19,000 nt of DNA from Candidatus Krumholzibacteriia bacterium. Its GTDB lineage: Bacteria > Krumholzibacteriota > Krumholzibacteriia > WVZY01. Where the stretch lies: positions 1 through 19,000 of the forward strand of contig JAZGDW010000011.1 in assembly GCA_036478295.1 (NCBI GenBank), given 5' to 3'. The notes under the pieces were generated by a model that did no database searches, was not told the DNA's origin, and saw only the letters and a list, made by a program, of their open reading frames with translations. A program made the position numbers and the translations under genes. Of this stretch, positions 4,803-18,262 are shown in pieces (within the stretch, counting starts at the first letter, position 1; the number at the start of each line of letters is the position of its first letter).

Positions 4803-6110
4803 GTGTTACCCCGTTTTTTTCGCCGTGCTTTGTGCGCGACAATGGTAATGAGCCTGGTCGTAGTGTCCATCGGTTGTGGTTCGAACTCGTCATCCGGCAA
4901 CGCAGCCGCCTCGGACAGCGCGGCGGTGGCCGAATCTCCGGGTGACAAGAGCGATGCCGCCGCCGCGGACAAGCCGAAGAAGACCAAGAAGCGGCGCGAG
5001 CGCACCACGTCGGTCAATGTCTCCCGCGCTTTGCGGGGCGACCTCGTCGTGCCCGTGATCGCCGAGGGTACGTTCAGGGCACGACACAGCGCTGAGCTCC
5101 GCACCGAAATTGCCGGCCGCCTCGTTCGCATCACAGCCAGCGAGGGACAGTCCGTCCGCAAGGGCGACCTGATCGCCAAGTTGGACTCGCGCGAATACGA
5201 GGTGGCGGAAGAAGAGGCGCGCTCGAAATATTTTCAGGCGCTCAGCCTTCTCGCTATCGAAGACGAGCAGATGGAACCTCTCGAGCGGCCGGCCGAACTC
5301 CAGAAAAAGATCGACGAACTGTTCCAGCTCGAAAGACGGGGCGCCATCACTCGCGAGGAGCGCCTCGCCCGTGAGGTGGCCCTGGATGTCGAGGCGCTCA
5401 AACAGGGTTACTTTCGCGTGGACGTCGTGGCGGGCCGCAGCGGTATCGCCGCCGCGCGCGCCTCGCTGGAGCGCGCCCGCCTCGACATCGAGCGCACGGA
5501 GATCCGGGCGCCCTTCGACGGCATTATCACCGAGCTCGAGATTAGTGCGGGCGAGCAAATGACCGTCGGCCAGACCATCTGCGCACTGGTCAACAACACG
5601 GATATCGAAGCCAAGGTCGGCGTGCTCGAAAGCGACATCGGCAAGCTCGCCGTCGGACGTCCCGCCTTGCTGGCCGTGCCCGCCCTCGGGGAAACCCTGC
5701 GTGTAACGGTCGACGTCATCAGCCCGCGCTTCGACCGGGAAAGCCGCACCTGCCAGGTGTTGCTCCGCCTCAAGAACACGCGGGGGCGCGTGCGCCCCGG
5801 GATGTTCGTGCGTGCCATCATCGCGGGCGAGACCTTCGACGACCTGCTGCTGGTTCCCCGCGAAGCCATCCTGACGCGCGACGGTCGCCCGCTGCTCTTC
5901 AAGATCGACGGCGACCGCGCCAAGTGGCTCTATGTCAAGATCGGCCACCAGAACGACCACCTGGTCGAAATCAACCGTGTTCTCCAGGGCGGCGCTCTCA
6001 CGCCCGACGATCAGGTGGTGGTGACCAACCACCTCACGCTGGCGCACGAGGCCAAGGTCAAAGTCAAGAAAGTACTCCCCGTCCGCGACCCCTGGGCGCC
6101 CGCGAACTAA
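4803..6110 (+). CDS. RND efflux periplasmic adaptor (membrane fusion protein), probable lipoprotein
   Basis: AGGAGG RBS and GTG start. Lipobox-like VSIGC, lipoyl halves 'EGQSVRKGDLIAKLD' and 'EIRAPFDGII', long helical hairpin, 'RPGMFVRA', 'LLVPREAI'. Confidence 0.92.
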   Translation: MLPRFFRRALCATMVMSLVVVSIGCGSNSSSGNAAASDSAAVAESPGDKSDAAAADKPKKTKKRRERTTSVNVSRALRGDLVVPVIAEGTFRARHSAELRTEIAGRLVRITASEGQSVRKGDLIAKLDSREYEVAEEEARSKYFQALSLLAIEDEQMEPLERPAELQKKIDELFQLERRGAITREERLAREVALDVEALKQGYFRVDVVAGRSGIAAARASLERARLDIERTEIRAPFDGIITELEISAGEQMTVGQTICALVNNTDIEAKVGVLESDIGKLAVGRPALLAVPALGETLRVTVDVISPRFDRESRTCQVLLRLKNTRGRVRPGMFVRAIIAGETFDDLLLVPREAILTRDGRPLLFKIDGDRAKWLYVKIGHQNDHLVEINRVLQGGALTPDDQVVVTNHLTLAHEAKVKVKKVLPVRDPWAPAN

Positions 6111-6119
6111 GGCGACCTC

Positions 6120-9100
6120 ATGCTGCGAGTCGTCATCCAGCGCCCGATTGCCATCGCGATGCTGTTTCTCGCGCTGGTGCTCATCGGGGGGTTGAGTTAT
6201 AAACGCCTGCCCGTCGATCTGCTGCCGTCGATTACCTACCCGCGTCTGACCGTCATCACGTCCTACGAAGACATTCCCGCCGAGGACCTCGAGCGCCTCG
6301 TCACCCAGCCCATCGAGGAGGTCGTGACCGCCCTCTCCGGCGTGCGCCGGGTCGTGTCGCGCACGCGCGAGGGCGTCTCCAACATCACGGTCGAGTACGA
6401 GTGGGGTACACAGATGGACTTTGCCAACCTGCACCTCCGTGAAGCGGTGGACCGGGTGGCCTTCCGTGACGATTTTCCGGAGGATGCCGAGCGTCCGGTG
6501 ATCCTGCGCTGGGATCCCCTGTCGCGGCCCATCAGTATCTTGACCCTGCGCGGCGACGACGGCGGCCGCATGCAATCGATTACCGACTTCGCCACGGAAG
6601 TGGTGAAGCCCGCGCTGCAGCAGGTCAACGGCATCAGCCAGGCCGAAGTGGTTGGCGGTGAGGACCGCGAGATCCTGGTCGAGCCCGACGTCAGGAAAAT
6701 GGATATCTACGGCGTGACCATTGAGGACATCCAGCAGGCGCTGGTGAGAAGCAACATTTCTTTTCCCGGGGGAAAAATTCGCCAGGGTCCCCTTCATCTC
6801 AGCCTGCGGATCGACGGTGAATACCAGTCGCTGGAAGACATCGCCGCAACCGACGTCGCCCGGGCGTCCGACTCGCCGGTGCGTATCTCCGACCTGGCGC
6901 GTGTAATCGATACGGTGAAAGAGGTGGAGGGTGTGACGCTGCTCGGTGACCAGCCGGTTGTTTCCATCCTCGTCTACAAGGAGCCGGAAGCCAACACGCT
7001 TCAGGTATCGGGAGAAATCGATCGCGCCCTCGGGGTACTCACGGAAGACTACGGGGATTTTCAATACGAATTCGTCTATCGCGACGCGCATTACGTGCGA
7101 GCATCGTTCAACGGTCTGGTCCAGTCGCTCATTGCCGGCGCCGGCCTGGCCTTTCTGGTTCTGTTTTTCTTTCTGCACAACTTTCGTACTCCGCTCGTCG
7201 TCGGCATCTCGATTCCCGTGTCCATCTTCATCACGTTCGCGCTGCTCTATTTCGGCAAGGTCAAGCTCAACCTGATGAGCCTCGGCGGCCTGTCATTGGC
7301 GGCGGGGATGCTCGTCGACAACGCCATCGTCGTACTGGAGAACATAAACCGCCACGTGCACGAACGATTCGGCACGGGCAAGGCCGGCGGCCCGGACAAG
7401 AGCCGGGGGCTGTCCCCATTGCAGCGCCAGCGCATGGTCGCCGATTCGGTGATTACCGGTACCGGTGAGGTGGCCCGCGCCGTCATCGCGGCGACGCTGA
7501 CCACCGTCGCCGTCTTTTTCCCCGTGGTGTACGTGCCCGGCATCGCGGGGGCGTTCTTCCGGGACCAGGCGCTGACGGTGACCTTCTCGCTGATCGTGTC
7601 AGTGGCCGCCGCCCTGCTCCTGCAGCCGATGTTGGCCGCCCGCCTGCTGTCGCGGCGACCTCGTGCACCCCGCGGTCTGTTCCGGCTCTTCGACAGGGTT
7701 TACCAGGCGTTCTATCGTCGCTACCACCGGGTGCTGGTTTCGGTCCTTCGCCGCCCCGCACCGATGCTGCTCGCGCTGCTCGCCGGTCTCGCGGTCACAG
7801 CCGTCATCGGCAGCCGCCTCGAGCGAAGCCTGATGCCCGAACGCAGCTCCGGGGATTTTGGAATCGACCTCGAGCTGCCCGCCGGCACGCCGCTGGAAGA
7901 AACCGTCGCCGCGGCCGCCGGCTTCGCCGCGTGGATCGAAGCGGACCCCGATGTTCGCACCGTGTTCACCCAGGTGGGGCGTACAGAGCGCACGCTGGCG
8001 GCGGTCAAGGACTACAGCGGCCCCAATACCGCCGATATGCGGGTGATTCTCGAACCGGGTCGCGGCGGGCGGCGCAAGGGCCTGCGCGTCCAGCGTGAGG
8101 CCGTCGAGCGTCTGAACGCGATGCCCGAGGTGCAGTACGTCTTTCACGAAGAAGGCATCGGCTTGCGCGAGCTACTCGCCTCCGACGAGGCTCCGTTCAG
8201 TCTTGGCGTGGTCGCGGATGACCCGTTGACGGCGCTCGAGTACGCAGAGGAGATTATACAAGCTCTGCGCGATCGGCAGGTCGTCGATGACCCGCACACC
8301 GACCGCGTGCTCGGAACGCCCAACCTGGTCATGCGGCTGGACGCCGAGCAAATCGCGCGGCACGGCCTGGACCCAGACCGCCTGGCGCGCGAGATCCGCA
8401 ACCGGGTCCGCGGCGTCGAAGCCACAACCTTCAACGAAGTGGATCAGCGCATTGACATCTCGGTCCGTATTCCGAGGGACCAGCGCCGTGACCTGACGGC
8501 GGCTCTAGATTCACCGGTCCAGCTCCCATCCGGAGAGACCGTTCCCCTGCGTTCGTTCATCGACCTCAAGGAGGAACGGCCGGTGCGTGAGCTGACGCGC
8601 CGTAACCAGCAGCGCATGGTCACGATTTCGGCCGAGCTGAGGAGTGGATCTCTCGACGACGCGTGGCGCGAGACGAGAGCGATTGCCGCCGCCATCGACC
8701 TGCCGCCGAACGTGCGGTTGGTGCCCGGCGGTGAGCAAAGCGAAATGGTCCGCAGCTTCAAGGACCTCGCGTGGGCGATGGCCCTGGCCATCCTGCTGGT
8801 CTACATGATTCTGGCGGCGCAGTTCGAGTCTTTCGTCGATCCCCTGCTGATCGCGTCGGTGATTCCGATGGGGCTGGCCGGTTCGATCCTCGCCGTCACC
8901 TTCTCGGGCGGCTCGCTCAACATGCTGTCGATTATCGGCATGGTGGCGCTGTTGGGGATCGCAGTCAACGACGCCATTATCAAGATCGATACCATACGAC
9001 GGCTGCGCTCCGACGGCATGGGCGGCTATGAAGCCATCCTCGAGGCCAGCCGCCTGCGGCTGCGGCCCATCCTGATGACGAGCGCCACCACCATTCTTGC

Positions 9101-9260
9101 CATGGTTCCGATGGCCATCGGCATCGGCAGCGGCGAGCAGCTGCAGCGACCGCTGGCGCTGACCATCATCGGCGGACTCTTCCTGACGACCGCGCTCACG
9201 CTGCTCTACACACCGATCCTTTACAAACTTGCGCACCGTATCGAAGAGGTGCGCTCATGA
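6120..9260 (+). CDS. RND efflux permease subunit 1 (AcrB/MdtB/SwrC-like), 1046 aa
   Basis: 'RPIAIAML', 'LPVDLLPSITYP', TM4 'GMLVDNAIVVLENI', 'ATLTTVAVFFP', 'LVYMILAAQFES', 'RLRPILMTS'. Confidence 0.95.
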   Translation: MLRVVIQRPIAIAMLFLALVLIGGLSYKRLPVDLLPSITYPRLTVITSYEDIPAEDLERLVTQPIEEVVTALSGVRRVVSRTREGVSNITVEYEWGTQMDFANLHLREAVDRVAFRDDFPEDAERPVILRWDPLSRPISILTLRGDDGGRMQSITDFATEVVKPALQQVNGISQAEVVGGEDREILVEPDVRKMDIYGVTIEDIQQALVRSNISFPGGKIRQGPLHLSLRIDGEYQSLEDIAATDVARASDSPVRISDLARVIDTVKEVEGVTLLGDQPVVSILVYKEPEANTLQVSGEIDRALGVLTEDYGDFQYEFVYRDAHYVRASFNGLVQSLIAGAGLAFLVLFFFLHNFRTPLVVGISIPVSIFITFALLYFGKVKLNLMSLGGLSLAAGMLVDNAIVVLENINRHVHERFGTGKAGGPDKSRGLSPLQRQRMVADSVITGTGEVARAVIAATLTTVAVFFPVVYVPGIAGAFFRDQALTVTFSLIVSVAAALLLQPMLAARLLSRRPRAPRGLFRLFDRVYQAFYRRYHRVLVSVLRRPAPMLLALLAGLAVTAVIGSRLERSLMPERSSGDFGIDLELPAGTPLEETVAAAAGFAAWIEADPDVRTVFTQVGRTERTLAAVKDYSGPNTADMRVILEPGRGGRRKGLRVQREAVERLNAMPEVQYVFHEEGIGLRELLASDEAPFSLGVVADDPLTALEYAEEIIQALRDRQVVDDPHTDRVLGTPNLVMRLDAEQIARHGLDPDRLAREIRNRVRGVEATTFNEVDQRIDISVRIPRDQRRDLTAALDSPVQLPSGETVPLRSFIDLKEERPVRELTRRNQQRMVTISAELRSGSLDDAWRETRAIAAAIDLPPNVRLVPGGEQSEMVRSFKDLAWAMALAILLVYMILAAQFESFVDPLLIASVIPMGLAGSILAVTFSGGSLNMLSIIGMVALLGIAVNDAIIKIDTIRRLRSDGMGGYEAILEASRLRLRPILMTSATTILAMVPMAIGIGSGEQLQRPLALTIIGGLFLTTALTLLYTPILYKLAHRIEEVRS

Positions 9261-12200
9261 CCCAGTTCTTCGTGCGCCACCCGGTCACGACCTGGATGAT
9301 TTTCGCCGTGTTCGTCCTGCTGGGAGTCTACGCCCTGCCCAAGCTCCAGGTTGAGGCAATACCTGAAATAAACCTGCCAACCCTAACCGTTCAAACATAT
9401 TGGAATGGTGCCTCTCCGAGAGCCATCCAGCGCTCTATTACCATTCCCATCGAGGAGGCGGCGCGGAAGATCCACGGTGTCGAGGAAATCGTATCGACGA
9501 GTTATGCGGGTCGCTCGCGCGTCCAGATCAAATTCCGGCGCGATATCAATATCGACTTCGCCCGCGTCGATCTGAACGAGCAGCTGGGCTCTGTCCGCCG
9601 CAATCTGCCGCTCAACGCCGCGCAGCCGCAGATACTGCCCTACGTACCGGAAGAATTCGCGACCGAAAACTTTTTTACCTTCAGCCTCGAGTCGGATCTC
9701 TCCCCGAACGAGCTGCGCGACCTGGCGGAAACCTGGGTAGTTCCCCAGATCCTGGCGTTGGAAGGTGTGGCTGACGCACGGGTGCTGGGCGGCGCCGATC
9801 CGTTGCTCAAGATCTACCTGGACCGGCAGAAGCTCGACCTCTACGGCATCACACCCGATGAGGTCTTCGCAGCCGTCAACCGTCTCGACGAGCTCAGCGG
9901 CGCGGGCGTGGTGCAGCAGTCGGGCATGGAGAAGATCGTTGCCCTTCGCGACCCGGTCGATCTGCGGCGCGTCCGCCGCGCCGTCGTGGCGCGGCGCGGC
10001 GACCGCGTCTTTACCCTGAACATGCTGGGCACGGTGGAGCGGGACTTCGAGGATCCAGTGTATTTCGTACGCACCAATGCCCGCAACGTCGTGCAGATTT
10101 CCGTCGACAAACGCAGCGGCGCCAACACCATCACCGCCAGCCGCGTGCTGCGCAAGGCGCTGCCGCACCTGCAAGACGAGGTTCCGTTCGCCGCCAGCTT
10201 CGACATCGATGAGGACCAGGGAGAGGAGCTCGAGGCCAAGCTGCGCGAGCTGGTTCTCCGGTCGTTCGTGATCCTGGGGCTGCTGTTTCTATTGCTGTCG
10301 ATAACGCTGCGCCAGCTGCGACTCACCGCCATCATCACGGGCTCGATCATTTTCTCGGTGCTGATTTCGCTAAGCCTCTTCTATTTCCTCGGCATCTCGG
10401 TGAATTTCATTACCATCAGCGGGCTGACCGTCTGCTTCGGTCTGATTCTCGATAACAGCATCCTGGTGCTGGACGCGATCCACCGGCGCCTTGGGGCCAT
10501 GGAGCACGCAGAGGCGGCCGGCCTGTCCCGCGCGGCCCGGCTCAAGGTGGCTCTCGAAACCATCCTCGGCGGCAGCCGCGAGGTGCTCTTCCCCATTCTG
10601 GCCACGACCCTCACCACCATCGTCGCCTTTGTGTCGTTCATATTCTTGTCCGGGCGCCTGGCGTTGTTCTACGTTCCGCTGGGTGTCTCGGTGGCCACCG
10701 CGCTCGGGGCCTCGCTCTTTGTCGCCTTCGGATGGGTACCGATGGTGCTGCACCGCGGCTGGGCGGTACCGCTCGTGCGCCGCGCGCCGGACGGTCCCAA
10801 CGACGTCACCGACCCCAAGGAGCTTGCCCGGTTCACCGAAGACCTTCCCGACCTGTCGGCGCGCCCCCCGCGGCTCGAGCGGCTGTGCCTGTGGAACCAG
10901 CGCTTGTGGTGGCTGGTGTTACCGCTGCTCGCCACCCTCTTCGTGTGGAGCGGTCATGTTTACAAGACCCGGGTGGTCAAGGGCGGGTTCTGGCGTCTGC
11001 CGGACCCGGAGCAGCTTCTCGTCTACATCCGCATGCCTCCCGGAACGGACATCACGCTGACATCGGAAACGATGGCGCTGTTCGAGTCTGCGATCCTGCC
11101 CGTTCCGGAAGGGGCCCGCATGCGCTCGCAGACCTTCGGCAATCAGGCGGTCATGCGCGTGGAGTTCGAGGGCGATGTTCTCCAGTCCGAAGTGCCGCTT
11201 TATTTTCGCACGGTGTTCGTCGACCAGGCGGACAAGCTGGCGGGAATGGCGATCTATATCTCCGGATTCTCGGAGACGCCGTACATCAACGGCGGCTTCT
11301 CGGGCTCGTCGCTCAACTCGCTGGTCAAGATGACCGGCTACAACTCGCGCCGCCTGCAGGAAATCGCGGAGGAAGCGCTCGCCCAGATCGAGCGCAACCG
11401 CCGCGTGCGCAACCCTCGTATCACGACCGGTTCGCGATTCGGCCGCGCGTCGCAAGAAGAGGTCGTCATCAACATCGACCGCGACCGGCTCGCTACACAC
11501 GGCCTGAGCGTCGCCGATGTGGTCAGCCGCATCCGCCGGCTGCTCGGTGTAGACGTTCCGTGGAACATGCTCATCGAGGGTGACAACCAGCGCGTGCAGC
11601 TCTCCTTTACCGATTCCGAGGAGATGGAATACCACGACGCCGTCCAGACCCTTGTCACGACGCCGTCGGGAGCGAGCGTGCGACTCGCCGATCTCATCTC
11701 GATCGAGACCGTTCCGCTCTCCGGCGAGATCACGCGCGAAGATCAACGTTATTCCACGTACCTCAACTGGGAATACATTGGTACCGACCAGATGCGCCAG
11801 GCGTATATCAAGAGTGTTATCGGATCGATGACCCTTCCCTACGGTTACGAGGCGGAAGAATCGACACGCGAGTTTTTTACGGAGGAAGAGGAAGAGGAGC
11901 TAATGATGGCGCTGGTGCTGGCCATCGTCTTCATATTCATGGTGCTCGCCGCGCTGTTCGAAAGCATCACGTTGCCGGTGATGGTGCTGATGTCGCTGCC
12001 GATGGCCCTGGTCGGCGTTTTCCACGGCTTTTGGTGGACGAACTCCTCTTTCGATTCTTCGGCCCGCATCGGGCTGATCCTGCTGTTCGGCATCGTGGTC
12101 AATAACGCTATTCTGCTGCTCAGCCGTTTCCGCACCGAGGCCACACTGACCTTGCAGGTTCGCCTCGGCGGCGATCCCACGGCCGAAGCGTCGCTCTTTC

Positions 12201-12589
12201 CCTCCGTCGGCAAGCAGCTCGGCGGCAGCGACCTGTGGAAGCTGCCAAAGAAGGACCGCGTTTTCCTGCTGCGGCGCGCGATCGCACGGGGACTGCACGT
12301 CCGCCTGCGGTCCATTCTCCTGACCAGCGGCACCACCATCGTGGGTCTTGCGCCGCTGCTCATCCATTTCCGCGACACCGAGGACAAGGACATTTGGGAG
12401 AACCTCGCGCTCGCTTCCATCGCAGGCCTCGCCTCCAGCACGCTCCTCATCCTGGTGGCCATCCCGCCCTTGTACTACGTGTCGGTGCGGTTCAACTGGC
12501 TGTGGCGCCGTATGTACCAGGCGGTGCGAAGGTTCTTCACGCGCAGGCGCGCAGGCGCCGAGCGGTCGTCCTCAGTTCCACAAGTGTAA
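9257..12589 (+). CDS. RND efflux permease subunit 2 (divergent paralog), 1110 aa
   Basis: ATGA overlap with subunit 1. 'RHPVTTWM', 'GLILDNSILVLD', 'TTLTTIVAF', 'FMVLAALFES', 'GIVVNNAILL', 'RLRSILLTSGTTIVGLAPL'. Confidence 0.95.
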   Translation: MTQFFVRHPVTTWMIFAVFVLLGVYALPKLQVEAIPEINLPTLTVQTYWNGASPRAIQRSITIPIEEAARKIHGVEEIVSTSYAGRSRVQIKFRRDINIDFARVDLNEQLGSVRRNLPLNAAQPQILPYVPEEFATENFFTFSLESDLSPNELRDLAETWVVPQILALEGVADARVLGGADPLLKIYLDRQKLDLYGITPDEVFAAVNRLDELSGAGVVQQSGMEKIVALRDPVDLRRVRRAVVARRGDRVFTLNMLGTVERDFEDPVYFVRTNARNVVQISVDKRSGANTITASRVLRKALPHLQDEVPFAASFDIDEDQGEELEAKLRELVLRSFVILGLLFLLLSITLRQLRLTAIITGSIIFSVLISLSLFYFLGISVNFITISGLTVCFGLILDNSILVLDAIHRRLGAMEHAEAAGLSRAARLKVALETILGGSREVLFPILATTLTTIVAFVSFIFLSGRLALFYVPLGVSVATALGASLFVAFGWVPMVLHRGWAVPLVRRAPDGPNDVTDPKELARFTEDLPDLSARPPRLERLCLWNQRLWWLVLPLLATLFVWSGHVYKTRVVKGGFWRLPDPEQLLVYIRMPPGTDITLTSETMALFESAILPVPEGARMRSQTFGNQAVMRVEFEGDVLQSEVPLYFRTVFVDQADKLAGMAIYISGFSETPYINGGFSGSSLNSLVKMTGYNSRRLQEIAEEALAQIERNRRVRNPRITTGSRFGRASQEEVVINIDRDRLATHGLSVADVVSRIRRLLGVDVPWNMLIEGDNQRVQLSFTDSEEMEYHDAVQTLVTTPSGASVRLADLISIETVPLSGEITREDQRYSTYLNWEYIGTDQMRQAYIKSVIGSMTLPYGYEAEESTREFFTEEEEEELMMALVLAIVFIFMVLAALFESITLPVMVLMSLPMALVGVFHGFWWTNSSFDSSARIGLILLFGIVVNNAILLLSRFRTEATLTLQVRLGGDPTAEASLFPSVGKQLGGSDLWKLPKKDRVFLLRRAIARGLHVRLRSILLTSGTTIVGLAPLLIHFRDTEDKDIWENLALASIAGLASSTLLILVAIPPLYYVSVRFNWLWRRMYQAVRRFFTRRRAGAERSSSVPQV

Positions 12590-13990
12590 CTGCACGAAGA
12601 GGTCCCAGTCGGTGGCGCCCGCCGTCGGGACGAGCATGCGAATGCGTCCATCGAGAGTCACGCCCGGGATGGGCGTGAACCGGCCGCCCGCCGCGTAACG
12701 GTTGGACTCGTCGTCCACGACCTCCCGGTCCGGGTCCGCCCAGTCGTGCGCAAGCAGGAGATTGACCCCGTTGGCAAGGAGCCAGTCGATCTCCTGGTAG
12801 AACGCAGCCTGGTCGGTGCGCAGGCCGCTTGCCCGCGTTCGCGACCCGTGATCGAATTCCGTCTGGTAGGTAAACGGCAGGTCAGGGCGGTAATGCAGCA
12901 GGTTGATGACCCCGTAGGCTCCCAGGGTCGAGGTATCGCCTCCCTCGGCCAGCGGCCGGCGCTGCAGAAGCAGACTCCCGCCGACGCTCCAGCCCAGGTC
13001 GCGATAACCGAGATTCAGCGCAGTGCCCCAACTCTCGTCGACATCGAAGATGTCGAACGGTGAGGGCTCGCGCGCGCGGGATGCCTTGCGAAACCACGAC
13101 AGGTTTATGAAAGGGTAATTGGGGGCCGCACCAATTTCGACACCGGTGACACGGGTTTCGGGCAGCGACCCATCCAGTTCGAAGCGCCTCCGGATCTGCG
13201 AGGTGTGGTCGTCGAGCCTCAGCCCGTAGGCCGGTGTGAACCTGCCCAGTTTCACATAGGACTGGTACGGCGCCTGGTGCAACAGGAGAAACGCTTCACG
13301 AAGGTACGGTGTGCGACTCTCGTCGAAGGTGCTGGAGTAACCGCTCGCGCGCCCGCGGAACCCCGTGTTCAGGAACACGGTGACATGACGCACCGGGTGC
13401 ACGGCCACCGGCAGGTCGCCCTGCATCGGAAAGGTGATGACCAGCCCCGAAAACAAAACGGCCAGGCGGACGTCCCACCCGATGCGGAGCAAAGGGTCGG
13501 CGGCGAGCCCGCCGTAGCGGCCCTGAAAAGGTGCGTAGCGGCTCGCCGCCCCATAGGGTCTGCCATAGGACCAGCGGTCGTCTATGGTCTCGTAGTAATT
13601 CTCCACCTGTTCGAACCGGTCCGGTCCCACGGGCAGCGAATCGCTATATGTCGTCGCGCGGTCCATGCGCGGGACCCGGCCAAAGAAACTCCGGTCCCAG
13701 TCGCGTGTCGGCCGCGGGCTGGTCGCGATCATCGGCAGCGTCGCACGGCCGTAAAAACGCCCCGACGTGTTTCGCATGCCGCCGCCGGCGGGATCCACGT
13801 GGCACGTCTGGCACGACAGGCTGCACTTGCGCTCGGCGAGCTTGGGGTTCTGCCATTTGTTGGGCGTCAAGTGGCAGTTGTCGCACGCCCGGCCCGCACG
13901 CGCCGCGTATAGCGGTATGGCCTCGGCAGCGCGGTTTTGCACCGCCGCGAGCATTACCGTCAGCAGAAAGAGCGTGCGCGTCAGTTGCAT
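12572..13990 (-). CDS. Diheme c-type cytochrome fused to a predicted outer-membrane beta-barrel (Cyc2-like architecture), 472 aa
   Basis: Signal peptide MQLTRTLFLLTVMLAAVQNRAAEA, then IPLYAARAGRA-CDNCH and a second motif CQTCH. C-terminal about 300 aa of alternating amphipathic strands ('YLREAFL', 'YVKLGRFTPAYG', 'TGVEIG') ending DLFVQLHLWN. Start ATG overlaps the upstream gene's stop. Confidence 0.75.
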   Translation of the reverse strand: MQLTRTLFLLTVMLAAVQNRAAEAIPLYAARAGRACDNCHLTPNKWQNPKLAERKCSLSCQTCHVDPAGGGMRNTSGRFYGRATLPMIATSPRPTRDWDRSFFGRVPRMDRATTYSDSLPVGPDRFEQVENYYETIDDRWSYGRPYGAASRYAPFQGRYGGLAADPLLRIGWDVRLAVLFSGLVITFPMQGDLPVAVHPVRHVTVFLNTGFRGRASGYSSTFDESRTPYLREAFLLLHQAPYQSYVKLGRFTPAYGLRLDDHTSQIRRRFELDGSLPETRVTGVEIGAAPNYPFINLSWFRKASRAREPSPFDIFDVDESWGTALNLGYRDLGWSVGGSLLLQRRPLAEGGDTSTLGAYGVINLLHYRPDLPFTYQTEFDHGSRTRASGLRTDQAAFYQEIDWLLANGVNLLLAHDWADPDREVVDDESNRYAAGGRFTPIPGVTLDGRIRMLVPTAGATDWDLFVQLHLWN

Positions 13991-14493
13991 GGTGCCGTCG
14001 CTCCGTTGGCAATCCAGCGTTCGATGGTCAGTCGTTCCACCTCTGTCAGGCGCGGCCAGGCCCCGGGCGGCATCTTGTTGAGAACGAAAATATCGGTCGC
14101 GATGTCGGCCAGGTTGGCGATGATGGCCTCGCACGTCTCGAGATTCGGCCGGGTGCCCCCGGGCGGGTCGTCGGTGGCGTGACACGGTATGCACTCACGC
14201 TGAAAAATCGGAAAGACCTGCGACCAGGTCGGTTGCAAGGGTGCGGCGTTGGGGTCGACCTGATCCAGCGGCAGGTCACCGGAACCGCATGCGGACAGCA
14301 GTATGAGCAGCAGCATGCAACAGGCGACCAGGAGACCGTTTCGCGCGGGGACGGGTCTTCCCCTTCGCGTGGGAGCGGGTCTCCCCGTTCGCGCGGGGAC
14401 CGGGTTACCCCTTCGCTCGGCGACCGGGATACCGCTTCGCGCGGGGACGGTGCTCCCGCCGCGGGAGTGTTGGCATATGAAGAGCGATTTCAT
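13981..14493 (-). CDS. Monoheme cytochrome c lipoprotein (planctomycete-cytochrome-like domain); start uncertain (14493 or 14316)
   Basis: Hydrophobic stretch with lipobox LSA|C, then 'VFPIFQRE-CIPCH', distal 'KMPP' and 'LTEVERLTIERWIANGA'. Neither candidate start has a clear RBS. Confidence 0.78.
   Translation of the reverse strand: MKSLFICQHSRGGSTVPARSGIPVAERRGNPVPARTGRPAPTRRGRPVPARNGLLVACCMLLLILLSACGSGDLPLDQVDPNAAPLQPTWSQVFPIFQRECIPCHATDDPPGGTRPNLETCEAIIANLADIATDIFVLNKMPPGAWPRLTEVERLTIERWIANGATAPCN
14336..14455 (+). repeat. Tandem repeat, 5 x 24 bp, consensus approx. CCSYTTCGCGCGGGGACSGGKYTH
   Basis: Units start at 14336, 14360, 14384, 14408 and 14432, each exactly 24 nt. On the minus strand they encode PVPARxG-like octapeptides ahead of the lipoprotein signal. 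Confidence 0.9.
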
Positions 14494-14537
14494 CGAGGAC
14501 GGCACGCAAGGGGAAACTGACGAGTGGGTATTGACCG

Positions 14538-14549
14538 GTGTTATAACAC
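14538..14549. promoter_or_regulatory. Perfect 12-bp palindrome, candidate operator
   Basis: GTGTTATAACAC is self-complementary and covers the minus-strand -10 box. Confidence 0.45.
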
Positions 14550-14568
14550 GAACCGAAGTCGTTGTCAA
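14540..14568 (-). promoter_or_regulatory. Near-consensus sigma70 promoter for the cytochrome pair
   Basis: Minus strand TTGACA (14568-14563), 17 nt, TATAAC (14545-14540), with an extended -10 TGn. Confidence 0.7.
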
Positions 14569-14590
14569 ACCTCGCGGTGAAGGTTATGAT
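14562..14590 (+). promoter_or_regulatory. Near-consensus sigma70 promoter for the radical SAM gene
   Basis: TTGTCA (14562-14567), 17 nt, TATGAT (14585-14590). Confidence 0.7.
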
Positions 14591-14683
14591 GCATGCACTA
14601 TGTGCGCGACTTTTATACGGCCACCAAGAGAATCGCCACCGCCCGCGTCGGGGCGTCGTGCTGTGGCGTGTGAGCCGGGTGCG

Positions 14684-16114
14684 GTGCGGGCGCCGGGTGC
14701 GGTGCTACTCATCTCGTGTTACGAGCAGGGCCACCAGCCGTTGGGACTGGTGATGCCGGCGGCGCGTCTCGAGGCGAAGGGATTCTCGCCGTCCCTCCTG
14801 GATATCTCGGTCGAGGAGTTTGATGAGCTGAGAGCCGCTCGGGCGTCACTGGTGGCCATTTCGGTGCCCATGCACACGGCGCTCCGCCTGGGTATAGAGG
14901 TCGCGAAAAGGGTCCGCAGAGTCAATCCCCGTTGCCATATTTCTTTTTACGGACTCTACGCCGCGCTCAACGCCGAGCACCTTCTGGACACCGTGGCCGA
15001 CAGCTGCTTCGGTGGTGAATTCGAGGACGCCCTCGTGCGTCTTGCCGTGACACTCGATGGGGGCGGTAACGTGCAGCCGTTCCAACATCCCCCCGTACGG
15101 CGCGAGGAGCTGCAAAGCGCCCGGCGCCACAAACGGCGGACCGCACTCGCCAGCCGCAAAGGTCTTCCGCCGCTCGAGCGCTATGTCAAACTTATCGACG
15201 GCACCGCACGCCGCACAGTCGGTTATGTCGCGACCACGCGCGGGTGCAAGCATCTCTGCCTGCACTGCCCGATTCCCCCGGTGTACGACGGCGCGTTCAT
15301 CGCGGTTCCGGCCGATGCGGTTCTCGAAGATGTTGCGCAGCTCGTCGACGCGGGCGCCACGCACATCACATTCTCCGACCCCGACTTTTTCAACGGACCG
15401 GCGCACGCCCGGCGCATCGTTCGGGCGATGCACGAGCGGTTTCCCTTCGTGACGTTCGACTACACCGCCAAGGTTGAGCACCTCCTGCGGCACCGCTCTC
15501 TGGTGCGGGAGCTGCAGGCGCTCGGTTGCGTGTTTGTCGTCTCCGCCATCGAGTCGCTGAACGACCGGACCCTCGACAATCTCAAGAAAGGTCACAGCGG
15601 CAACGATGTCATAGACGTGATTCACTTTTTCAAGTCAATCGGGCTCGCGCTCCGTCCGTCACTTCTTCCCTTTACTCCGTGGGACTCGTTGCAGGATTAC
15701 ATCGAACTGCTCGACATGATCGAGCGCGAAGGGATGATCGATCACGTCGATCCCGTTCAGTACGGGGTTCGTTTGCTGGTGCCACCGCGCTCGTCGCTCC
15801 TCGCATCGGACGCGATGACACCGCATCTCGACGCTCTGGACCGGGAAGGGTTGACGTACCGCTGGCACCACCCAGACACTCGCATGGACGAGCTGCAGCG
15901 GCGTGTGAGCCGTCTGGTCGAGGACGCCACAGCCTCGGGCGAGGATGCGGCGGTGACGTTTTATCGTATCAGGGACCTGGCGGATTCGCTGGGCGGCAGG
16001 GACGCTTCGTCGATCCTCCTCGATTATCCGGCGGATCGACCGATGCCGCCGCGGCTGAGCGAGGACTGGTTTTGCTGAGCGGAGCCCACCGGGCGCCAGT
16101 TAGGCGCTTTCTGA
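14684..16114 (+). CDS. CUAEP-tail radical SAM selenoprotein with N-terminal B12-binding-like domain; UGA 16076-16078 read as Sec; alternative start ATG 14600
   Basis: CxxxCxxC motif (TRGCKHLCLHCP), N-terminal 'LLISCYEQGHQPLG...ISVPMHTALRLG', 'HITFSDPDFFN'. In-frame TGG TTT TGC TGA GCG GAG CCC reads W-F-C-U-A-E-P, then TGRQLGAF and a stop at 16112-16114. Matches the CUAEP/CCAEP-tail family as I recall it. Confidence 0.88.
16091..16109 (+). promoter_or_regulatory. Bacterial SECIS-like hairpin
   Basis: GGGCGCC-AGUUA-GGCGCUU: 7-bp stem (two G-U pairs) and a 5-nt loop with G at position 2 followed by U. 19 nt separate the UGA from the loop. Confidence 0.72.
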
Positions 16115-16143
16115 GCCTGCAGTTCAGCGAGTGGGCACTGTAC

Positions 16144-16172
16144 TTGCAATCGTGCGTTCCAGGTAGTAGTTT
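16144..16172 (+). promoter_or_regulatory. Possible internal sigma70 promoter for the NifU-like gene
   Basis: TTGCAA (16144-16149), 17 nt, TAGTTT (16167-16172) in the 160-nt gap. Confidence 0.3.
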
Positions 16173-16274
16173 TGGGAATGTAGCAACGCGCCCGGAGGAC
16201 GTATCATCGACGAGCGGGCGTCAACAAATTCGAGCCGTCGGCGCGATTGCGACGGCTCCGATCGAGGAGATACC

Positions 16275-16913
16275 ATGAGCGAAGAACTCAGTTTCAGCTG
16301 GCGTACGCAAGACGGTGGCCGCATCCGCGTGACGGTCGAGCCGTCGCTGAACCAGGCGAACGTGTGTCGTTTCCTCGTTGAGCCCGCACTTTACGAGGCG
16401 GGCGGCGCTCATTTCGCAAAGGGCGACGACCTGAGTGCCTCGCCATTGGCCACCAGTCTTTTCGCGGCCAGCGATGTGACGGAAGTTCTGATCGCCGGCA
16501 ATACCGTGACCCTCACCACAGAGACCGCGCCGGATTGGAACGAGCTTTCCGCGAAGATCGCCGAGCTTATCCGGGCCCAGCTAAACTCGGGCGCCCCGCC
16601 CGTGTCCGATGATTTTACCGAGGGCCTGCCCGCATCCGATGTCATCCGTGAAAAAGTGCAGGGCGTCATCGATGACTCCATCAATCCGTCCGTCGCCTCT
16701 CACGGCGGTGTTGTAACGCTGCTCGACGTTAAGGGCAACAACATTTTTCTCGAGTTCGGCGGCGGTTGCCAGGGCTGCGGGATGGTCAGTGTCACTCTGA
16801 AGTACGGGGTTGAGCGTCTCCTGCGCGAGCAGGTACCGGAGGTCGGCCAGATACTGGATACCACCGATCACGCCGCCGGCCAGAATCCGTACTATGCGCC
16901 GTCGGCGAAATAG
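16275..16913 (+). CDS. NifU/NfuA-family Fe-S cluster carrier (Nfu N-terminal domain plus NifU C-terminal domain), 212 aa
   Basis: GAGGAG RBS. 'SPLATSLF...VTEVLIAGNTVTLT...W' (Nfu N-terminal domain) and 'INPSVASHGGVVTLLDV...FGGGCQGC...TLKYGVERLL...DTTDHAAGQNPYY'. Confidence 0.93.
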   Translation: MSEELSFSWRTQDGGRIRVTVEPSLNQANVCRFLVEPALYEAGGAHFAKGDDLSASPLATSLFAASDVTEVLIAGNTVTLTTETAPDWNELSAKIAELIRAQLNSGAPPVSDDFTEGLPASDVIREKVQGVIDDSINPSVASHGGVVTLLDVKGNNIFLEFGGGCQGCGMVSVTLKYGVERLLREQVPEVGQILDTTDHAAGQNPYYAPSAK

Positions 16914-17032: not shown

Positions 17033-18262
17033 ATGTCACGAATTCTTCTGTTAGTCCCCACGACCAGCTACCGTGCCGCCGCGTTTGTGAGCGCCGCCCA
17101 GACGCTCGACGTCGAAATCACCCTCGCATCGGAAAAGACGAGTTCTCTCGAGAAATTCCTGCCCCTCGATCTCATGACACTGGACTTCTCCGACCCGCAC
17201 GCCTGTGCCGCGAAGACGATGGCGTTTGCGCGTGAGCATCCGGTCCACGCGGTCATTGGCGTGGACGACCAGACGACGGTCGCCGCATCCGCCGCCGGCG
17301 CCGCGCTGGAGCTGCCGCACAACCCCCTGGACGCTGCCTATGCCACTCGCAACAAGCACACCATGCGCAAGCGGCTCGATGAAGCGGGCGTGCCGGTGCC
17401 TGGATTCCGCACGCTGTTTGTCGACCTCGATCCGCGCGAGGCGGCGAGTGATGTCGAGTTTCCCTGTGTCATCAAGCCGCTCATGATGGCGGCCAGCCGC
17501 GGTGTCATCCGCGCCGATAACACGGAAGAATTCGTAGCGGCGTTCGACCGCGTGCGCTCGATTGTTCAATTGGAGGACGCGCCGCTGGATGATGAATCCC
17601 GCACGCAGGTGCTCGTCGAAGATTACGTACCCGGTTGGGAGATTGCCATAGAGGGTATGTTGACCGGGGGCCGCCTCCATGTCTTTGCCGTATTCGACAA
17701 GCCCGACCCCCTGGAAGGCCCGTATTTCCCGGAGACGATTTATACGACGCCATCGCTCCTGCCGGCGGAGGTGTGGCAGCGCGCCTGCCGCCTCACCCAG
17801 GAAGCGATCCGGGTACTCGGACTGCGCCACGGGCCCGTGCACGCGGAGATCCGCGGCACATCGGACGAGATGTGGTTCATCGAAGTGGCCGCGCGGTCGA
17901 TCGGCGGTTACTGCTCCAAAGTACTGCGCTTCGACGGCGGGCTTTCTTTGGAGGACATTATTCTACGCCATGCGCTCGATCCGAAAGTAGCTCTGCCCGA
18001 GCGCGATGAGGGCGCCGCGGGTGTGATGATGCTGCAGTCGCCTCGCAAGGGCGTTTTTGTCGAGGCGCGTGGAGTCGAGGCCGCGCGCGACGTGAAACAC
18101 GTCGACGAGATTATCGTTTCCGCCTACCCGGGACAGGAGCTCTCTCCCCTGCCCGAGGGATTCTTGTACGTTGGTTTTATCTTCGCGCGGGCCGGGACGC
18201 CGGCCGCCGTCGAGCATGCCCTGCGGCAGGCCTATGGAGAACTGGAGTTCGTTATAGAATAA
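17033..18262 (+). CDS. ATP-grasp ligase (L-amino-acid-ligase-like), 409 aa
   Basis: 'NKHTMRKRL', 'FPCVIKPLMMAASRGV', 'VLVEDYVPGWEIAIEG', 'HAEIR', 'FIEVAARSIGG'. Start placed at ATG 17033 (MSRILLLVPTTSYRA). Confidence 0.9.
   Translation: MSRILLLVPTTSYRAAAFVSAAQTLDVEITLASEKTSSLEKFLPLDLMTLDFSDPHACAAKTMAFAREHPVHAVIGVDDQTTVAASAAGAALELPHNPLDAAYATRNKHTMRKRLDEAGVPVPGFRTLFVDLDPREAASDVEFPCVIKPLMMAASRGVIRADNTEEFVAAFDRVRSIVQLEDAPLDDESRTQVLVEDYVPGWEIAIEGMLTGGRLHVFAVFDKPDPLEGPYFPETIYTTPSLLPAEVWQRACRLTQEAIRVLGLRHGPVHAEIRGTSDEMWFIEVAARSIGGYCSKVLRFDGGLSLEDIILRHALDPKVALPERDEGAAGVMMLQSPRKGVFVEARGVEAARDVKHVDEIIVSAYPGQELSPLPEGFLYVGFIFARAGTPAAVEHALRQAYGELEFVIE

Follow-up and report, generated by a model that had tools for sequence, protein, structure and literature searches.

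The 19,000 nucleotides analysed here (the window) are positions 1 to 19,000 of contig JAZGDW010000011.1 in the assembly GCA_036478295.1 of a Candidatus Krumholzibacteriia bacterium. They carry a gene for a radical S-adenosylmethionine (SAM) protein in which an in-frame TGA almost certainly codes for selenocysteine (Sec) and not for a stop, as judged from its sequence context and that of its homologues. The ordinary listing of open reading frames (ORFs) terminates the gene at 16078 (ORF 14303-16078). Its last sense codons, TGG TTT TGC (W-F-C, 16067-16075), are followed in frame by TGA at 16076-16078. Past this codon the frame reads GCG GAG CCC ACC GGG CGC CAG TTA GGC GCT TTC, that is A-E-P-T-G-R-Q-L-G-A-F, and is closed by a second in-frame TGA at 16112-16114. 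The original prediction for this DNA had given the continuation as U-A-E-P-T-G-R-Q-L-G-A-F-stop, which matches the sequence as written, and its claim of 12 residues beyond the called end is borne out by the read-through frame together with the comparative evidence described below.

The read-through protein is a member of NCBIfam family NF040546, "CUAEP/CCAEP-tail radical SAM (seleno)protein", on which it scores 631.6 bits against a curated cut-off of 500 bits. The recognised tail family to which it had been assigned from the sequence exists, and the protein passes its cut-off. Residues 134-601 of the read-through frame align with profile positions 1-467 of 468, so the match crosses the TGA; a six-frame search of the genome with the same profile gave 626.2 bits, with one TGA inside the match. 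The second-best NCBIfam family was NF040542, ArsL, with 316.4 bits over profile positions 1-413 of 423, which is all but the tail. Since the ArsL cut-off is 450 bits, the window protein is not an ArsL member. All remaining NCBIfam families scored 46 bits or less, with weak matches to HpnR and PhpK among them. To call the selenocysteine "hidden" was half right: most gene callers do truncate the protein, and 101 of the 120 best hits among public records end at W[FY]C, but the annotation rules at NCBI already name the family as a selenoprotein.

The codon at the Sec position was compared in 36 loci, 12 from relatives and 24 from a scan of public genomes. It was TGA in 22, TGC or TGT in 12, and cut off by a contig end in two. 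The TGA loci include the window itself and one duplicate, and the cysteine loci include three actinomycete CCAVP or CCAMP forms. A C-TGA-AEP or CCAEP arrangement at this position, as anticipated, was the rule, and all 12 Cys-form homologues read on into AEP, AVP or AMP. In the window's relatives, each of the 21 matches that run as far as the NF040546 profile's C-terminal end (21/21) holds exactly one TGA, and the six family-level matches without a stop all finish at profile position 406 or earlier. Among 33 aligned sequences A593 and P595 after the TGA are invariant, as is the pattern P..E.W.C before it. A tree of 31 sequences was built without the tail columns, omitting a duplicate (L033) and two frameshifted loci (L044 and L048). 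On this tree the Sec/Cys label switches five times, and the well-supported branches force at least four switches. In the two frameshifted loci no more than 97-98 codons of open radical SAM frame precede the tail, and in L044 the gene for an ATP-grasp enzyme also matches in three pieces; both loci look like frameshifts through assembly error or gene decay.

Bacterial Sec insertion would call for a selenocysteine insertion sequence (SECIS) just beyond the UGA, and the hairpin with a G-containing apical loop that had been proposed at SECIS distance is present. It has a 5' arm GGGCGCC (16091-16097), a loop AGUUA (16098-16102) and a 3' arm GGCGCUU (16103-16109), with 7/7 positions paired. It spans +15 to +33 relative to the TGA, starting 15 nt downstream, and the loop G lies 23 nt past the U of UGA. 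In this loop G position and in the loop G-U it appears to resemble the Escherichia coli fdhF SECIS. Folded as a single 81-nt sequence the region gave z = -2.58, with 2 of 200 shuffles folding equally well, which by itself proves little. Stronger evidence comes from covariation in 21 distinct Sec-form sequences, which align without gaps, measured against 500 shuffles. Helix cells were paired in 89.1% of cases compared with 64.8% in the shuffles (0/500 as high), and in at most 59.9% when the partner was slid by 1-3 columns. Cells changed on both sides numbered 41, compared with 12.7 in the shuffles (0/500 as high), and the covariation score was 0.741, compared with at most 0.248 in the controls with partners slid by 1-3 columns. 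Neither the closing C-G pair nor the G of the loop varies in the Sec forms, and the loop consensus is A-G-(U/G)-U-N.

The Cys forms provide a control for the hairpin. Sec forms have a mean of 6.24 of 7 in-register pairs (n = 21), whereas Cys forms have 2.25 of 7 (n = 12). In a Ktedonospora locus (L047, 7386-7434) the ORF ends four codons after Sec, as CUAEPA-stop, and the hairpin lies in the 3' untranslated region; it is outside the frame yet paired in register at 6/7 positions, which argues that RNA structure and not the peptide is the constraint. Three Ktedonobacter loci (L045, L046 and L050) have a weaker hairpin, with 4/7 pairs in register, and are fitted better by a 4-nt loop shifted by one base.

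The machinery for Sec is encoded in the genome, whose assembly is 91% complete. A genome search found selA (476.2 bits), selB (383.5 bits) and a tRNA-Sec (68.1 bits) in which ARAGORN reads the anticodon tca (UCA). There is also part of selD, an N-terminal fragment at a contig end that covers profile positions 1-79 with 80.2 bits, below the cut-off. Within the N-terminal motif of this fragment (L001, G000:C118, 1-260, minus strand) a TGA stands in frame, ...AACAG-TGA-ASKFD..., so that the SelD of this genome itself appears from its sequence to be a selenoprotein. Among other genomes tested, selA was found in 5/5 with a Sec form, above the cut-off in four and split in two pieces in one, and in 3/5 with a Cys form.

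Several observations weigh against reading the TGA as Sec. The selD gene was seen solely as the 79-position contig-end fragment scoring below the cut-off. The sequences compared are kin, and the shuffle counts and the Mann-Whitney p of 1.6e-6 for the difference in pairing between Sec and Cys forms overstate their independence. Cys forms, too, retain the Q and L/F of the tail in part, and some of the loop conservation could be driven by the peptide. Rfam gave no match over the whole window at its gathering thresholds, and at E <= 10 on 16040-16180 three chance-level matches, none to a SECIS family; Rfam evidently misses short bacterial SECIS elements. In the literature searched, there was no report of experimental read-through for any NF040546 member. 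With these points taken into account, insertion of Sec by the SelB/SECIS route remains highly probable from the genomic and comparative data. SelB with Sec-tRNA(Sec), anticodon UCA, would be recruited by the hairpin at 16091-16109 through its loop A-G-U-U-A and would insert Sec at 16076-16078, and translation would end 11 codons after Sec, at the TGA of 16112-16114.

The listed ORF is also in error at its 5' end, where it is overlong by 99 codons (14303-14599). The NF040546 profile match begins only at residue 134 of the read-through ORF. In a relative of the same genus (L033), the first in-frame start codon is the ATG of "MCAT...", which is equivalent to position 14600 of the window. Because this relative has no earlier in-frame start codon, the true start is probably ATG 14600, which would give 504 residues with the pair C492-U493. 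Translation of 14303-14599, with its AGTGLPLR-like repeats, was considered and rejected: no relative matches it by tblastn, it precedes the start of the profile, and it overlaps a tandem repeat in the DNA. This repeat, at 14323-14454, consists of a 24-nt unit repeated 4.8 times (14340-14454) or a 48-nt unit repeated 2.6 times, and it accounts for the spurious AGTGLPLR-like extension. It sits in a divergent intergenic region of about 600 nt upstream of the radical SAM gene and has no other occurrence in the assembly. A promoter-like TTGTCA-17-TATGAT at 14562-14590, recognised by its match to the consensus at 10/12 positions, ends 10 nt before ATG 14600; with it the transcript would have hardly any leader, or no leader at all.

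The protein consists of a Rossmann-type, B12-binding-like N-domain and a radical SAM barrel whose single cluster site is a CxxxCxxC. In Pfam it matches B12-binding (PF02310, 38.2 bits) followed by Radical_SAM (PF04055, 47.7 bits). Conserved cysteines in the 33 aligned sequences are limited to the CxxxCxxC site, where the exceptions include the two frameshifted loci, and to the tail pair, so nothing points to an auxiliary cluster. An AlphaFold2 model from a 121-sequence alignment had a mean predicted local distance difference test (pLDDT) of 92.4 and a predicted template-modelling (TM) score of 0.91. Over residues 491-504, the two final blocks, where Cys-Sec is located, pLDDT falls to 71 and 64. 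The vicinal Cys-Sec pair that had been predicted is at the tail, and this drop in pLDDT lends weak support to the "flexible" that went with it. The best solved match by Foldseek was AprD4 (E 9.7e-17, query-normalised TM-score 0.64), followed by TsrM, OxsB, MgmA, CysS and MiaB. A sequence search of the PDB gave one marginal match (9ccb_A, E 2.7e-4), and no structure of ArsL or of an NF040546 member was among the sequence and fold matches there.

The features of the locus are collected in Table 1. Downstream of the radical SAM gene, on the same strand, are genes for an Nfu-type carrier and an ATP-grasp enzyme, and the three probably form an operon. The ATP-grasp ORF is open from 16940, with the ATG at 17033 as its likely start, and its product has weak NCBIfam matches to BacD and DdaF.

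Table 1. Features of the radical SAM locus in window coordinates.
Feature	Position	Strand	Evidence or remark
Radical SAM gene, NF040546 family, almost certainly a selenoprotein gene	14600-16114	+	504 residues including Sec, from probable ATG to true TGA stop
CxxxCxxC motif (CKHLCLHC), radical SAM [4Fe-4S] cluster	15245-15268	+	Cys columns conserved in 31-32/33 family members
C-U-A-E-P tail motif	16073-16087	+	TGC 16073-16075, putative Sec codon TGA 16076-16078; C, U/C, A and P invariant in 33/33
Predicted SECIS hairpin, 7-bp stem and loop AGUUA, within the last 12 codons	16091-16109	+	Covariation in 21 Sec forms
TGA that is the true stop of the radical SAM gene	16112-16114	+	Read from the sequence
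Nfu-type Fe-S cluster carrier gene, CQGC motif	16275-16913	+	Pfam NifU 71.4 bits, Nfu_N 46.9 bits
ATP-grasp ligase gene, L-amino-acid-ligase type	~17033-18262	+	Pfam ATP-grasp_4 106.4, LAL_C2 51.1, ATPgrasp_N 30.7 bits

Neighbours were counted in 11 relatives' loci with 1.5-kb flanks and in the 24 wider loci (L033-L056). An Nfu/NifU-domain gene was present in 8 of the former and 7 of the latter, and an ATP-grasp ligase in 5 and 12, respectively. Within the wider set, 12 loci have a gene of the YggX type for Fe(2+) trafficking (PF04362), and 19 have either Nfu or YggX. Three of the five that have neither are on contigs shorter than 5 kb. The YggX-type gene stands in place of Nfu in other phyla (L034, L035, L037, L040, L044-L047 and L049-L052), and it is tandem-duplicated or fused in the Ktedonobacter-group loci and in L052. 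With longer flanks, the order radical SAM, Nfu, ATP-grasp was found again in one genome (G015), the radical SAM and Nfu genes only in another (G023), and neither Nfu nor ATP-grasp in two genomes of another family. Taken over all loci, the genomes with the cassette of CUAEP radical SAM protein, Nfu or YggX, and L-amino-acid ligase are Krumholzibacteria-like or belong to Acidobacteriota, Chloroflexota or Actinomycetota. A formyltransferase-like gene is found in seven loci (L045-L051), six of them from Chloroflexota, with a weak match in L048, and two Acidobacteriota loci have a POT peptide transporter. Neither the window nor the 24 wider loci showed any ars, mer or other metalloid gene.

Upstream, at 4803-12589, the window carries an RND efflux system with an HlyD-type adaptor and two AcrB-family genes (1046 and 1110 residues), with 83-87% identity to its counterpart in the same-genus relative. 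Between this pump and the radical SAM gene is a minus-strand gene of about 473 codons (12572-13993), the product of which begins like a signal peptide and has two haem-binding motifs of the CxxCH type, CDNCH and CQTCH. It had no Pfam family and chance-level NCBIfam matches only, and it is absent from L033, where the second gene of the pump runs to 5958 and is followed by the start of the radical SAM gene at 6049. A single unit of pump and radical SAM gene was rejected for this window, in which the minus-strand gene and the 600-nt intergenic region intervene, although the two abut in L033.

The available part of a bioRxiv preprint by Haft calls NF040546 uncharacterised (10.1101/2022.07.06.499078), and no other paper in the literature searched names the CUAEP/CCAEP family. 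The window protein shares with NF040546 the C-U-A-E-P tail, the domain order and the alternation of Sec with Cys, and there is no difference from the family definition; this copy is distinguished by its origin in an uncultured lineage and by the spurious 99-codon ORF extension at its 5' end. ArsL, of arsinothricin biosynthesis, is the closest characterised enzyme. According to the portions available of two preprints, it converts SAM to methylthioadenosine and a 3-amino-3-carboxypropyl (ACP) radical or Fe-C organometallic species, and links ACP with As(III) bound by the cysteines of a C-terminal CCxxC, forming a carbon-arsenic bond (10.1101/2024.02.01.577332; 10.64898/2026.04.29.721666). From the same portion of the first, ArsL is without an auxiliary cluster (10.1101/2024.02.01.577332).

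The two proteins have in common a B12-like N-domain and radical SAM core, a single CxxxCxxC with no cysteines for an auxiliary cluster and, close to the C-terminus, a vicinal dichalcogen. They differ in the tail, which in ArsL is RCCLKC with three As(III)-binding cysteines and in the window protein is WFCUAEP with two ligands. They differ also in their surroundings: an ars operon with arsM or arsQ for ArsL, and for the window protein and the 24 wider loci Nfu or YggX and an ATP-grasp ligase as partners, with no such operon. The Cys-Sec dipeptide is rare, and it recurs in HgcA, SAO locus proteins and some MerT, for which the part of the Haft preprint available proposes that Cys-Sec interacts with a heavy-metal atom (10.1101/2022.07.06.499078); in fold and family these are unrelated to the window protein. 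AprD4, TsrM and OxsB, with an N-terminal Rossmann B12-type domain, are similar in fold (Foldseek E 1e-15 to 1e-16; query-normalised TM-scores 0.53-0.64 for the first-listed chain of each structure). They have no Cys-Sec tail, and sequence identity is 11-17%.

By analogy with the ArsL tail, it is plausible that the tail of the window protein is a ligand for a soft metal or metalloid, as the original prediction had it. An ArsL-like chemistry can be put forward tentatively on the same analogy. After cleavage of SAM at its S-C(gamma) bond, the enzyme would move the ACP group onto a soft element bound to the Cys-Sec pair. Supply or repair of the cluster would fall to the Nfu or YggX partner, and the ligase would use the new amino acid to make a dipeptide. 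If the analogy holds, two ligands in place of the three of ArsL and the absence of nearby ars genes suggest a different acceptor. Four observations count against this proposal: the score of 316 bits is under the ArsL cut-off of 450, the tail has two chalcogens and not three, there are no ars, mer or metalloid genes near it in the window or the 24 loci, and the ligase was not seen in half of the 24 loci. A further extension of the ArsL analogy, which we regard as doubtful, is that the cassette is an undescribed pathway in which ACP would be attached to a soft element that has only the two chalcogens of Cys-Sec as ligands and the ligase would form a dipeptide, giving organo-element natural products beyond arsinothricin. 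Candidate elements would include arsenic or antimony in a species that has been alkylated beforehand, and selenium, tellurium or mercury.

It is also possible that the Cys-Sec pair does not hold a metalloid, and forms a redox-active selenenylsulfide that supplies the radical SAM active site with electrons or a hydrogen atom. Mammalian thioredoxin reductase, with its Gly-Cys-Sec-Gly tail, is the model for such a role. Consistent with it are the position of the vicinal C-U close to the C-terminus, in a stretch modelled with lower confidence (pLDDT 71 and 64), the absence of a conserved counterpart to the third cysteine in the CCxxC of ArsL, and neighbourhoods without metalloid genes. In favour of a ligand role, however, the closest characterised enzyme, ArsL, binds its substrate through a Cys-rich tail, and CU motifs are tied to heavy-metal and organometallic chemistry in the Haft preprint, as far as its available text goes (10.1101/2022.07.06.499078).

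That the enzyme, with Sec inserted, belongs with the class B cobalamin-dependent radical SAM methyltransferases or the like, and is not an ACP transferase, is unlikely. In favour of this reading are the Pfam B12-binding domain, at 38.2 bits, structural matches to TsrM, OxsB, MgmA, CysS and TokK (E 1e-11 to 1e-16) and the weak matches to HpnR and PhpK. Those NCBIfam matches are nevertheless at most 46 bits, compared with 316 bits for ArsL, and the top structural match, AprD4, is a diol dehydratase; in the 2024 ArsL preprint, B12 or cobalamin is mentioned 0 times (10.1101/2024.02.01.577332). An ordinary stop, with the protein ending in WFC, the hairpin serving to stabilise or terminate the transcript and the AEP frame open by chance, would suit the standard gene calling, the 101 of 120 best public protein records that end W[FY]C and the lack of an Rfam match to the hairpin, but is very improbable given the 12 homologues with a Cys codon at the exact position that continue into AEP, AVP or AMP, the A and P invariant past the TGA in 33/33, a hairpin that is retained in TGA forms only and has no U-run behind it, the alignment of the NF040546 model across the TGA, and a genome that encodes Sec machinery.

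The family and its selenocysteine are already known, being curated in NCBIfam. New here are the quantified covariation of the SECIS, the control of the hairpin in Sec and Cys forms, the corrected start, and the census of Nfu or YggX and ligase neighbours. For annotation, the record of this gene should give a selenoprotein of 504 residues from 14600 and not a 591-residue ORF ending in WFC; truncation at W[FY]C affects most public records of the family, judging from the 120 best hits. The family is large, with E <= 0.001 for 7,429 of 8,000 candidates scored, and extends over many phyla. NF040546 is the nearest relative of ArsL, the only canonical radical SAM enzyme known for the formation of a carbon-metalloid bond, and the Cys/Sec tail, together with the conserved iron or Fe-S and ligase partners, gives concrete handles on the chemistry of the family.

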